Positions 49,372-58,202 are shown, counted from the stretch's first letter. The stretch is 64,000 nt of DNA from an uncultured Bacillales bacterium (GCA_946623125.1 CAMOQR010000002.1:1922-65921), one strand, 5' to 3'. Translations and numbers: made by a program. The notes: generated from the letters alone by a model not told the origin.

Positions 49372-52300
49372 TTATGTAGTAATTAATGAACCTTTTGTAA
49401 CATTCGATGAGGATGATTTTGTTGCGATTACATTATCAATTGCTGTTACGACACTTGTATAATTTACTGTTATGGATGCTCCTGTTTTAGTTGCAGCATT
49501 GTAAAACGTATTTGAGTAAGTTGTTGGATTTTTATATAAATTCATTGTGCAACTAATTCCTACTGCATTATAAAACATTGATTTAATGTTGGTTGCATAT
49601 ACTTTAAGTGTTCCAATACTAAATGGTGCAGCATTATATCCTGTGTAGTAAAACATCTCTGTCATATTAGTTACTTTTGCTGTGTTCCAATTTGATAAAT
49701 TTCCTATTGATAATGTGCTTGCATTATATCCTAAATAGGCAAACATATAAGACATGTTTGTTGCTTGCGTTACATTCCATCCTGATAAGTCTCCAATGTT
49801 TATTGAAGTACAGTTATATCCCAGTTTGTAAAACATGTACTGAAAATATTTTACTTTTGATACATTCCAGTTTGATAGATTTCCAAATGAAATAGAGGAA
49901 GAATTCAATCCAAAACAATAAAACATATATCTTAAATCTGTAGCGCTCGATAGATTCCATCCGGAGATATCTCCTAGATTGATTCCATTTGTTGTAACTC
50001 CTTGTGCAGCATTGTGAAACATATAAGATAAATTTGTTACATTTGTTAAAGTCCATCTGGAGATATCTCCTATGCTCCAAGTAGTCGCAGCATTTCCTGT
50101 ATTGCTAAACATGTAACTCAAATTATTAGCACTTGACATATCCCATTTTCCAAAATCCGTAAGATTAAAACTGGCTGTTGCATTTCCTGCTCCTTTGAAC
50201 ATTGATGCAAAACTAGTAACGTTTGATACATCCCATTTACTAATATCGCCTAAGCTCCAATTTAGAGCACTACTTGCTGCTCCTGTAAACATACATCCTA
50301 ATGAGGTTGCTCCTGACATATTCCAGCTGGATATGTCTCCAATAGACCACACTGTTGCTTTTTTTCCTGAATCTCCAAATAAATAGTAGAAATTTGTAAC
50401 GTGACTTACATCCCAATTTTGTAAATTTCCTAAATTAAAGGTTGTGTCGGCTCCTCCTGCACCATGAAATGCGTGAGCAATCTTTGTAATTGCTGATGTG
50501 TTCCAGCCTGATAAATCTCCTATATACCAAGTTGTTGCATTTCGTGCCGTATAATAAAACATATCTTCTATCGTTTCTAATTTTACTATATTCCATTTTC
50601 CAATATTTCCTATGTTAAATGTTAATGAATTACCTGCACAATTATAAAACATATAAGCCATATTTGTAACGTTTTCTGTGTTCCAATTTGACAAGTCTCC
50701 TATACTCCAATTGTTTTCTTGTGAATATTGTGCAGCATTTGAGAACATTCTTTCCATTGTTGTAACATTTCCAGTATCCCAGTTAGATAAATCTCCAATA
50801 TACCATTCAGTGTTATTACTTTTTGTACCTGTTTCAGAAAACATAGAGTTCATTTTTGTAACTTTTGCAGTCGTCCAACTGCCAATATTTCCTATGTTAA
50901 ATGAATTTGCTGATGAACCAGCATTGTTAAACATATGTTCCATACTTGTTACAGCAGTTGTGTTCCATCCGGATAAATCTCCTATATACCAAGTTGTTGC
51001 ACTATGTCCTGCATTAGCAAACATATTTGCAAAGCTAGTAGCTTTTTCAACATTCCAATTTCCAATATTTCCTATATTAAATGTTGAAGCACTACTCCCT
51101 GTATTTAAGAATAGGTATGTCATGTTTGTTACTTTGGATGTATTCCATCCGGATAAATCTCCTACATTCCATGTATTTGCATTAAAACCACTTTCTCGAA
51201 ACATGTTACTCATCGATGTTGCGGCCAGTGTTTGCCAATTATTAAGATTTCCAATATTCCATTCTTCTTCGGTCGTGAATCCTGCACCATAAAACATACT
51301 ATCAAAACTTTTTACTTTTTTTACATTCCAGTTATCTAATGAGCCAATTGACCAGGTCGTTGCTTTATATCCAAAATTTTTAAACATTTGATACATTGAT
51401 TCAACATTTCCTACATTCCAACTTGACAAATCTCCCAAATACACTGTATCTGCTTGTTCTCCTGCGAAACTAAACATATCATCCATGCTTTGTATATTTG
51501 AAGTATCCCATTTCCCAATATCTCCAATATTAAAGTTATCTGCATTTTGGCCAGCATATGAGAACATTTCTTTCGTATCTTTCACGGCAGATGTTGTCCA
51601 ATTTGATAAATCTCCTATTTCCCATGTCATTGCTTCATTTCCAAAGTAGGAAAACGTTGCATTCATTGTTGTGGCACTTTGGGGCCTCCATCCTGATAAG
51701 TCTAGGGTTACTGTAGTTGAATTAATTCCCGCTTCACTAAAAGTTTCTGTCATGTCTGTTACATTTGTAACATTCCAATTGCTTATATTTCCTATCGACC
51801 AGTTTTCTGCTTCTGCACCAAACCCTTCAAAGGTATCTTTTAAATTAGTAAGAGCCTGGGGCCGCCAATTTCCTAAATTTAAAGATATTGATGTGGCGTT
51901 ATATGCTGCTTGTTGAAACATACTTTCAAAAGTTGTTACTTTTGAAACATCCCAATTTGAAATATTTAAACTCCAACTAGAAGCAGGCTTCCCTGTTACT
52001 GCAAACATAAAATCCATTGTTGTTACATTTGAGGTATTCCAATTGCTTAGGTCTAGACTCCAAGTAGTAGCCGAAAAGCCTGCACTTTGAAACATTTTTG
52101 TCATATTTTCTACATTAGAAACATTCCAATTCGATAAATCTCCAATATAAAAAGTTGATTGGGCATGTTGAATGGCATAAAACATCAAATCCATTTTTGT
52201 TGCGGATTGTGTATTCCAATTAGTTAAGTCAAGATTTACAAAGCTTGAGTTTAAACCTGCTTGGGTAAAAGTATTAGTAAATATTTTTACACTTGAAACA

Positions 52301-57611: not shown

Positions 57612-58202
57612 CTACTCTTGTCCATATACTAATGTAAATTTTGCTGAGCTTTGTGAAACTTCAGTGCTATTTACATTTGATCCTGTATAGCGAACAACTA
57701 AATATAAATCTTTTGTGGCTCCTGCCGTTATGGAAGCATTACTTGTTGTAACTAAAGTATTTCCTGTTGCGTCCGTTGTTACTTTATAGGTAATGTTTCC
57801 GCACACCATATTTCCTCCACTTGCTGTTGTGCATGTTGTGCTTGTTGGTTTTGTTGGTGTGATTGAATTTAATTTTGCATTGATTCCTCCATTGTTTTTT
57901 ACTTGGAATTTGTACACACAGCCGTCTTCAGGTTTACTTAATGTTGTATTTGCTACAGAAATAGATGTTGCTGTAACTGTTGCTGTTCCACAACTTCTTC
58001 CAGTATCACTAGTTCCTTCTACTGTTGCATTTACCGTTCCTGCAACAAGTGCTACATCCCAAGATAGTGCATTTTGTGTAACTTTAGCAACTGTAACATT
58101 TAAATTTTGTGATAGTGCTGCATAGGCAATTGCTATTCCAAATAAGGAAATCGTTACGATTAACAACGGAATATAATACTTTTTTCTTTCCAATATCTTC
58201 AC
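57612..58202 (-). CDS. TasA/CalY-like secreted protein, paralog 1 (first gene of the operon; start codon uncertain, GTG 58202 or TTG 58193)
   Basis: The signal peptide ends AIAYAALSQ. It also has QNALSWDVAL, LSKPEDGCVYKFQVKNNGGINAKL, four Cys and the C-terminal SAKFTLVYGQE. Confidence 0.6.
   Translation of the reverse strand: MKILERKKYYIPLLIVTISLFGIAIAYAALSQNLNVTVAKVTQNALSWDVALVAGTVNATVEGTSDTGRSCGTATVTATSISVANTTLSKPEDGCVYKFQVKNNGGINAKLNSITPTKPTSTTCTTASGGNMVCGNITYKVTTDATGNTLVTTSNASITAGATKDLYLVVRYTGSNVNSTEVSQSSAKFTLVYGQE

Follow-up and report, generated by a model that had tools for sequence, protein, structure and literature searches.

Gene content of the operon

A stretch of 64,000 nucleotides (nt) of DNA from an uncultured Bacillales bacterium (GCA_946623125.1 CAMOQR010000002.1:1922-65921; hereafter the window) carries, at positions 49372-58202, seven tightly packed minus-strand open reading frames (ORFs) encoding four small secreted paralogs, a DUF5305-family membrane protein, a dedicated signal peptidase I (SPase) and a repeat protein of 1324 amino acids (aa). 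The operon is read here, with a probability of roughly 60%, as a self-contained, chaperone-free donor-strand fibre system of the Tafi/AbpX kind, an interpretation that draws on sequence, structural models and analogy with characterised loci. A preliminary description of the window had proposed a dedicated surface-fibre or adhesin-display system in a non-Bacillus Firmicute; this is plausible, the SPase and DUF5305 module being as in known donor-strand systems. Reading the window's ORFs returned all seven genes where that description had placed them, and the gaps between them, in order 13, 31, 37, -1, 6 and 6 nt, agree with its range of -1 to 37 nt. The seven genes also come out of an independent gene call on a metagenome scaffold of 99-100% identity (L001), where two of them start slightly later (192 aa and 376 aa).

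The operon opens with subunit 1 (57612-58202, 196 aa), subunit 2 (57014-57598, 194 aa) and subunit 3 (56392-56982, 196 aa), followed by the DUF5305-family gene (55092-56354, 420 aa), subunit 4 (54499-55092, 197 aa, or 192 aa if a later start is used), the SPase gene (53353-54492, 379 aa) and the gene for the repeat protein (49372-53346). The small proteins are true paralogs by alignment, with identities to subunit 1 of 52% (subunit 2), 40% (subunit 3) and 32% (subunit 4, the most divergent), and pairwise tblastn comparisons among the four give E-values of 1e-17 to 1e-57; the rest of the window contains no other paralog. Each motif that had been quoted for them is present, namely the signal endings AYAALS, AYAAMS or AFALLS, an L-S-K-P-x-D-x-C-x-Y-x-L-x-V-x-N-x-G block, and a C-terminal F-x-L-x-(Y/F)-x-Q. 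In subunit 1 a Sec signal occupies residues 1-28 and ends AYA↓ALS (the arrow marks the predicted cleavage site), followed by an amphipathic N-terminal strand at about residues 29-41 and an all-beta domain with four Cys; the signal of subunit 4 ends AFA↓LLS. The long hydrophobic (h-) regions of the subunit signals span 19-20 residues and have transmembrane (TM)-like scores. The mature subunits are 165-168 aa, with isoelectric points (pI) of 4.6-8.4 and 5.4-9.6% Asp plus Glu, and their strand begins A-L-S-(T/Q/S)-(T/N).

Across 71 members of the subunit family, four Cys are invariant. Column entropy is lowest in the cleavage motif (0.27 bits), rising to 0.97 in the strand that follows and 1.25 in the rest of the protein, and the small-x-small cleavage site (AYA, AFA or GYS) is nearly invariant. 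Conservation runs about 20 residues past this site in a strand-like amphipathic pattern, and the cognate signal and cleavage motif earlier proposed to be shared by the four proteins is highly conserved. None of the four reaches a Pfam or NCBIfam family at threshold. Subunit 2 gives sub-threshold matches to DUF11 (PF01345, 16 bits with a cutoff of 24.6; TIGR01451, 22.2 bits with a cutoff of 24) and further weak, sub-threshold matches to immunoglobulin (Ig)-like domains, and the subunit-family profile also picks up giant DUF11-repeat surface proteins, at profile positions of about 36-161 that vary by protein. Common to subunits and DUF11/CARDB domains is a strand pair of the form PGD-x-(Y/F)-x-hydrophobic-x-V-x-N-x-G, and the PGD...Y.L.V.N.G block quoted in the preliminary description is a general DUF11/CARDB hallmark. 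Unlike the DUF11/CARDB repeat giants, the subunits are single-domain proteins with a signal peptide each, are encoded with a dedicated peptidase, and fall below the DUF11 and TIGR01451 cutoffs; as judged from these profiles, the link to DUF11/CARDB is a remote relationship and not membership. At least 333 family members are found in a collection clustered at 90% identity, and a profile search retrieves 4279 representatives at E <= 0.001 (DUF11 proteins among them), 927 at E <= 1e-10 and 115 at E <= 1e-30. None of 120 listed members has a Pfam domain, and the few names given read 'hypothetical protein, Bacilli bacterium'. The subunit family is a new, unannotated one in metagenome-assembled genomes (MAGs) of rumen and gut Bacilli.

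The peptidase is an S26B (SipW-like) signal peptidase I. It scores 84.1 bits against TIGR02228, the model for the endoplasmic reticulum (ER)/archaeal type (cutoff 51.85), has Pfam S24/S26 matches as well, and in a search with the profile of 13 orthologs has SEC11A and SEC11C as its closest relatives of known structure (E 9e-16). Ser285, His322 and, in the GDAN box, Asp339 and Asn341 are invariant in all 13 orthologs, in agreement with the ER/archaeal-type enzyme with Ser, His and GDAN box described beforehand. The large extra membrane domain noted at the same time is likewise seen in a hydropathy scan, which places nine TM-like segments at residues 12-268, ahead of a catalytic domain at about 270-370; the protein ends some ten residues past this domain and has no C-terminal domain. 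Residues 1-268 match no Pfam family, and within them I69, G82, F87, E114, R117, P168, Y191 and P206 are invariant in the 13 orthologs; an exosortase-like domain was considered for this region and rejected, as it holds no invariant Cys or His. Against the SipW equivalog model NF046067 the peptidase scores 59.3 bits and fails the cutoff of 190. The abpX-linked SPase of Pyrodictium abyssi is 380 aa long, compared with 379 aa in the window, and the two catalytic domains occupy the same position in the protein and share 35% identity (E 4e-19); hhalign of the window SPase family against the P. abyssi enzyme aligned the catalytic domain alone, and the membrane domains are not alignable.

The 420-aa protein has an acidic N-terminal cytoplasmic region (27 Asp or Glu in residues 1-95), a TM segment at 99-117, an extracellular domain, a second TM segment at 300-318 and a C-terminal cytoplasmic domain. 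It had been described as a two-TM protein with an acidic tail; the two TM segments stand and the acidic region lies at the N-terminus, but the DUF5305 identity had been missed. Its homologs number 151, from about 47% identity (E 6.5e-95), and PF17231 (DUF5305) is found in all 25 homologs that were aligned (best E 2.4e-18). The window protein itself gives no PF17231 match at E <= 0.01 and is, by transitive homology, a divergent DUF5305 protein. A DUF5305 gene adjoins the SPase gene in every related locus in which both are visible, and DUF5305 proteins have been proposed to be signal-peptidase accessory subunits (PMC11821415; bioRxiv 10.64898/2026.01.04.697558). A search of PDB sequences with the DUF5305 family profile returned nothing meaningful. 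Orthologs range from 334 to 800 aa, with most of the variation in an N-terminal cytoplasmic region that is acidic, of low complexity and expandable (e.g. L004:11225-12907 and L010:13612-16014).

Large partners and related loci

The last gene of the operon had been taken for a giant leucine-rich repeat (LRR) protein and in fact encodes a DUF285/PARCEL-repeat protein: PF03382 (DUF285) matches it in 16 stretches (E 3.9e-186), and the PARCEL repeat model TIGR02167 scores 186 bits. It is not a lipoprotein like those of the Mbov_0838 family (254 bits with a cutoff of 500, and no lipobox Cys), and it has a single N-terminal hydrophobic segment with neither a TM nor an LPXTG anchor at the C-terminus. 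Its N-terminus reads ...ESVGYS↓ALSNNLFVSGN, a signal of the subunit type followed by the strand motif (residues 23-37, from VGYS onwards), after which the protein runs almost straight into the DUF285 repeats. It shows no tblastn similarity to the subunits and contains no subunit-like domain. The strand is present and the similarity to the subunits is absent; the PARCEL protein could therefore donate a strand and not accept one.

In a motif scan of the 57 window ORFs of at least 100 aa, the signal and strand motif occurs in the operon proteins only. In related loci all subunits have it, and the only other proteins to carry it are large ones whose genes lie next to the module, in which it takes a distinct consensus, (I/V)GYSAL-x3-L-x-(I/V)-SG(D/N). 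The presence of the subunits' signal and N-terminal strand motif in large neighbours, in this operon the PARCEL protein, appears to be new.

These loci come from a scan of one genome per GTDB species, which returned 18 loci, all in MAGs labelled Bacilli, Bacillales, Firmicutes, Erysipelotrichaceae, Tenericutes or 'uncultured bacterium'. Where sources are named they are rumen or gut (roe deer, sheep, rabbit), and sporulation genes occur on related contigs. In these neighbourhoods, a survey of which the preliminary description had suggested, the module is conserved. About 18 related loci, all in MAGs of Bacilli from rumen and gut, combine DUF5305 and a full-length polytopic SPase (34-58% identity over about 375 aa) with three to eight paralogs of the subunits, in two gene orders. 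The paralogs keep their places. In L003, L004, L006, L012 and L016, positional orthologs of subunit 2 share 60-65% identity with it, and subunit 4 holds its place between DUF5305 and SPase in orthologs of 36-40% identity; positional orthologs of subunit 3 in related loci share 49-53%. A more distant form of the module is seen in L021 and L023, with an SPase of 375-384 aa, DUF5305, a 216-aa 'GFAAFS' subunit and a large protein; hhalign shows this small subunit to be a homolog of the window family (96%, E 2e-9). The spore-former contig of L023 (1.27 Mb) holds two systems about 3 kb apart (334-2150 and 4528-9884). In the first, a classical two-TM SipW-like peptidase (317 aa) accompanies a 252-aa protein with a SipW-cognate-type signal, 'GATFAYFTA', and in the second, a nine-TM SPase and DUF5305 accompany the 216-aa subunit and a 764-aa 'GYSAF' large protein; neither of the two small proteins reaches a Pfam family.

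A large partner is present in about 8 of the 14 related loci with visible flanks. L011 and L014 each encode one large motif protein with a DUF285 body, L007, L010, L012 and L028 one each with other domains, and L021 and L023 one each with a diverged motif and other domains. In L004 and L027 there are three such proteins in a row, with DUF285 in the one scanned (1065 aa). These three consecutive proteins (1065, 710 and at least 795 aa; L004:14769-20221 and L027:14763-20582) follow the SPase, each starting 'TIGYSAL..L.ISGDV', and give the impression of a series of alternative cargoes or tips. The large 'GYSALS' proteins of L028 (7282-9339) and L007 (1622-3640) lie by subunit genes and have a common body, '...NVIFANHCWQ...', with no tblastn similarity to the DUF285 protein of the window; that of L028 directly follows the SPase, and the short L007 contig shows no SPase.

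Proposed fibre assembly and alternative readings

Subunit 1 was modelled as a monomer with AlphaFold2 (AF2) from the 71-sequence alignment, both as the full-length precursor (predicted local distance difference test, pLDDT, 89) and in its mature form (pLDDT 92.8, predicted template modelling score 0.85). The mature model is all-beta, with its first 21 residues as coil outside the domain; the full-length model has a long, confidently predicted helix at its N-terminus. With this signal helix included, a Foldseek search gave a noisy list in which TasA stood at rank 47, and the search was hence rerun on the mature domain. Donor-strand pilins then make up 27 of the top 50 PDB matches. A PapG pilin domain is found with probability 1.00, and the TasA fibre (8aur_A) stands at rank 4 (E 0.019, probability 0.90, template modelling (TM-) scores 0.35/0.27); FimF, FimG, FimA, CfaB, Csu and the Sulfolobus Saci_0406 thread are also among the top matches. 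Searches of PDB sequences with the family profiles gave just chance-level matches to carbohydrate-binding modules and endoglucanases. Other kinds of pili were considered and set aside. Type IV pilins do not fit a Sec-type signal of n-, h- and c-regions with an AxA site after the h-region and no class III signal, nor an operon with no prepilin peptidase or assembly ATPase; sortase pili do not fit the lack of LPXTG and sortase.

The nearest profile match is AbpX, homologs of which occur in archaea and in Bacillota/Chloroflexota and for which structures are available (PDB 9SJ2, 9RHP; bioRxiv 10.64898/2026.01.04.697558). Against a single AbpX sequence the subunit family aligns with 31% probability in hhalign, and against an AbpX profile, a shallow one built from a homolog search that returned five proteins, with 84.6% (E 7e-6), in a colinear alignment of 134 columns that takes in the signal peptide. 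The precursor end of AbpX, ...LTYA↓QWSETLSLSATI, has the same cleavage context as the window family, ...IAYA↓ALSTTLxITFxK, and when the AbpX donor strand defined by cryo-electron microscopy, QWSETLSLSATI, and the window strand, ALSTTLxITFxK, are placed in register, S3, T5 and L6 are identical and positions 2, 6, 8 and 10 hydrophobic. AbpX itself gives a sub-threshold match to camelysin (PF12389) and is labelled in UniRef as a CARDB domain protein. The subunits are beta-sandwich proteins that plausibly lie on the margin of the TasA superfamily and of the CARDB-like proteins related to it, with membership of the superfamily a candidate assignment only.

In the proposed mechanism, the four small paralogs and the PARCEL protein, each with a typical n-region and h-region, would be exported by Sec. 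The operon's own S26B SPase, with DUF5305, would recognise the near-invariant (A/G)-(Y/F)-(A/S)↓A-L-S and cut at it, as co-conservation and the known systems suggest; that the two form a dedicated module serving substrates with a shared cognate signal is very probable. Cleavage would expose the amphipathic strand A-L-S-T-T-L-x-I-T-F, which lies outside the predicted beta-sandwich, and the exposed strand would insert into the groove of a neighbour, linking subunits head to tail, with the four positionally conserved paralogs serving as major and minor subunits. Having a strand and no acceptor domain, the PARCEL protein would only cap the groove end, in the manner of TapA, which supplies the first strand in Bacillus fibre assembly (PMC10151520), or TafC, a larger protein for which donation of the first strand and a place at the tip have been proposed (PMC11821415). 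The PARCEL protein would probably nucleate the fibre and sit at its distal tip as an adhesin. The absence of a TapA-like gene, pointed out in the preliminary description, holds at the sequence level, but by analogy the PARCEL protein, with its subunit-type motif, may be the functional equivalent of TapA or TafC and is a candidate tip adhesin. More speculatively, the newest subunit might be tethered by its uncleaved signal peptide, so that the fibre would grow from its membrane-proximal base.

Several observations weigh against a donor-strand fibre. No Foldseek match to a PDB entry reaches E <= 0.001, TM-scores being 0.3-0.48, and profile hidden Markov model (HMM) searches gave no match of the subunits to TasA/camelysin, DUF1102 or any solved pilin. 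When the signal peptide (and strand) is trimmed, the AbpX alignment falls to 36-43% over 73 columns; much of the 84.6% therefore came from the signal and strand region. AbpX has a pI of about 4 and about 15% Asp and Glu, compared with pI 4.6-8.4 and 5-10% in the window subunits, and its calcium-binding pair, aromatic at position 2 and acidic at position 4, is replaced by L2 and T4; without this pair, a calcium trigger is unlikely. The large partner is optional, missing from about 6 of the 14 related loci with visible flanks, and no LPXTG, SLH or sortase anchor and no regulator is seen in the operon.

The same module could also process and secrete proteins that do not polymerise, the four CARDB/DUF11-like proteins and the PARCEL adhesin being private substrates with a cognate signal that act as monomeric surface or secreted proteins, and the motif being a sorting signal only. 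DUF11 and Ig-like domains are usually non-polymerising modules, and the profile matches to giant DUF11-repeat proteins and the sub-threshold DUF11/Ig-like matches of subunit 2 speak for this, as do the lack of significant similarity to any filament subunit and the position of the conserved motif across the cleavage site, where a recognition element would lie. It is nonetheless judged unlikely. Conservation reaches well beyond the cleavage site, into an amphipathic segment outside the predicted fold; a set of three to eight paralogs that keep their positions from locus to locus is typical of pilins, major and minor; and more than half of the top 50 Foldseek matches are donor-strand pilins. Every characterised system with an SPase and DUF5305 module, moreover, makes donor-strand filaments (PMC12337348; bioRxiv 10.64898/2026.01.04.697558). 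If some or all subunits kept their signal peptides, they would instead form a type-II membrane-anchored surface coat, with the peptidase providing regulated release or acting on part of the substrate set. The TM-like h-regions and the confident N-terminal helix of the full-length model would suit such a coat, and the operon encodes no other anchor; set against this are the nearly invariant, canonical small-x-small cleavage site, the SPase I that is always co-encoded, and the cleavage of the corresponding site in homologous systems, verified for AbpX by its mature mass (bioRxiv 10.64898/2026.01.04.697558), which together make a coat quite improbable.

The preliminary description had assigned the small proteins to TasA/CalY (camelysin), and a true TasA/CalY (Peptidase_M73) operon with SipW, its subunits divergent members of the TasA family, was weighed as well. 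There is some likeness: the signal endings are similar (AYAALS, compared with TWAAFND in TasA), the PGD...N.G block and a C-terminal strand are in common, the TasA fibre 8aur is high in the Foldseek list, and AbpX gives its sub-threshold PF12389 match. No PF12389 match at E <= 1 was found for any of the four subunits, compared with E 2.4e-37 in the same library for a TasA control sequence (B. subtilis precursor, 261 aa), and in hhalign the subunit family aligns with this sequence at 9-13% probability, limited to the PGD...N.G motif. The signal endings resemble the SipW-cognate T(W/F)A(A/Y)F(N/S)D by eye, but an NCBIfam scan at E <= 1 returned no SipW-cognate signal peptide model (TIGR04088 in the preliminary description) for any subunit. 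The structural resemblance to TasA, although high in the Foldseek list, stays short of E <= 0.001. With mature proteins of only 165-168 aa, all-beta, a peptidase that fails the SipW equivalog and has nine TM segments where SipW has two, and no TapA or CapP homolog, a TasA/CalY operon is scarcely credible here.

If the donor-strand fibre reading is correct, the recently recognised class of fibres built with an SPase, DUF5305 and donor-strand subunits (Tafi, AbpX, TasA-like) reaches into abundant uncultured Bacilli of rumen and gut, and the large unannotated subunit family gains a function. PARCEL/DUF285 adhesins are widespread in Mollicutes and Firmicutes, and their attachment to the cell is poorly understood; they would gain a concrete display mechanism, and the shared signal and strand motif would be a simple sequence handle for detecting cargo proteins of this kind in metagenomes. 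A broader proposal, possible but doubtful, is that in uncultured Bacilli of rumen and gut large adhesins, those of the DUF285/PARCEL type included, are tip-mounted on a chaperone-free donor-strand fibre through a short N-terminal strand, (I/V)GYS↓AL-x3-L-x-(I/V)-SG, and are not lipoproteins or sortase substrates. The nine-TM SPase and DUF5305 would be an assembly machine in which each cleavage frees a strand to lock the subunit that follows, so that the fibre grows from its base. Such a system, made from a previously unannotated subunit family, would be the functional equivalent in Gram-positive bacteria of chaperone-usher pili with tip adhesins.

Genomic setting and comparison with known systems

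Upstream of the operon, the best promoter-like site is a candidate sigma-70-type promoter on the minus strand (58218-58245; TTGAAA, a 16-nt spacer and a TG-extended TAAAAT, 10 of 12 matches), which lies just after a terminator-like hairpin of the upstream gene (58282-58261). This is the single candidate promoter of the preliminary description. It stands as the best upstream site, with its extended -10 TG, but is weak evidence by itself, since this AT-rich region has no excess of promoter-like sites (62 compared with 71.6 expected). At the other end, the hairpin at 49345-49370, between convergent genes, had been called a strong terminator; its 11-bp stem is real, but it scores as a terminator on the plus strand only, and on the operon strand the U-tract is just 4 U. 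It plausibly serves as a bidirectional terminator. GC content averages 27.3% in the window and is 31-36% in the subunit genes, 33% in the PARCEL gene, 22% in the DUF5305 gene and 25% in the SPase gene, a spread that probably reflects T/S/A/G-rich as opposed to K/I/N-rich proteins and not foreign origin.

Directly upstream of the operon, a minus-strand gene (58281-60590) encodes a 769-aa fusion of an O-antigen-ligase-like membrane domain to GT4/GT1 glycosyltransferase domains, which keeps its place in L001. Further upstream, a plus-strand gene (60745-62703) encodes a 652-aa protein with five PASTA repeats in its C-terminal part and about 350 N-terminal residues that give no protein-kinase or penicillin-binding protein match in Pfam. 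Elsewhere in the window, a 1460-aa surface protein (16340-20722, minus strand) combines a CAP (cysteine-rich secretory) domain with four Big_2 domains and an InlB B-repeat and lacks the operon's signal motif. In the minus-strand region 45834-47656, a mechanical 414-aa ORF (45834-47078) overlaps a GT2 gene (46718-47656) by 361 nt; the L001 gene call has a 289-aa UbiA-family protein in its place, and the long ORF is therefore an upstream over-extension.

The preliminary description had regarded the gene combination as undescribed. This was overstated, as a multi-TM SPase I with DUF5305, major and minor subunits and a tip protein is on record for Tafi loci (PMC11821415, PMC12337348) and for AbpX loci of archaea and Bacillota (bioRxiv 10.64898/2026.01.04.697558), and the architecture of a multi-TM SPase, DUF5305 and several small subunits is not new. 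Of the systems with which the operon can be compared, the tapA-sipW-tasA, B. cereus sipW-calY and C. perfringens sipW-bsaA loci (PMC9674648, PMC10151520, PMC11580942) are alike in placing an ER-type peptidase beside beta-sandwich subunits with a cognate signal, and the SipW operons of Bacillus and Clostridium build fibres through N-terminal strand donation, with the TapA accessory giving the first strand. Unlike these, the window operon has DUF5305, which those papers do not describe in the tapA-sipW-tasA operon, four paralogs and a nine-TM extension of its peptidase, compared with two TM segments in the classical SipW-like protein of L023, and it has no Peptidase_M73 protein and a PARCEL protein in place of TapA.

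Haloarchaeal Tat-fimbriae (Tafi) and the Sec-dependent taf-like clusters found in Thermococcales and Archaeoglobales encode the peptidase TafD and, as DUF5305 protein, TafG, together with two or three subunits that are 150-200 aa long (PMC11821415), and strand donation has been seen by cryo-electron microscopy in Natrinema Tafi (PMC12337348). The window operon resembles them as a cluster of five to seven genes with a peptidase, DUF5305, small subunits and a larger candidate tip protein, and in its proposed chaperone- and usher-free donor-strand assembly. It differs in several respects. TafD has four TM segments and a C-terminal Ig-like domain, compared with nine N-terminal TM-like segments in the window SPase; haloarchaeal subunits have twin-arginine translocation (Tat) signals, compared with Sec-type signals without a twin-arginine motif; archaeal Sec-type subunits are annotated as DUF1102, compared with no DUF1102 or any other Pfam match. 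There is also no TafF-like membrane anchor or TafB regulator in the operon, and the host is bacterial. The Tat signal, the TafD form and the DUF1102 subunits that define the Tafi class are thus all lacking, and the DUF5305 component alone is shared.

In AbpX loci, known from archaea and Bacillota, a dedicated SPase I with ten TM segments is encoded together with a DUF5305 protein called 'SPI-accessory', with minor subunits that are AbpX-like and with tip proteins (bioRxiv 10.64898/2026.01.04.697558, Sleutel et al. 2026 preprint). Besides the differences in charge and calcium-binding residues given above, the window subunits have four invariant Cys and not two, and subunit homology is weakly detectable; the window operon, unlike AbpX loci, is without an SLH/LPXTG anchor, sortase or cyclic di-GMP/kinase regulators, and its large partner is a DUF285/PARCEL protein. 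Shared by the two are a polytopic S26B SPase I of about 380 aa, a two-TM DUF5305 protein, several small paralogs with disulfide-forming Cys, and a larger 'tip' protein predicted to join via an N-terminal strand. In both, the signal ends (T/A)-Y-A and leads into a strand of the form x-hydrophobic-S-x-T-L-x-hydrophobic-x-hydrophobic.

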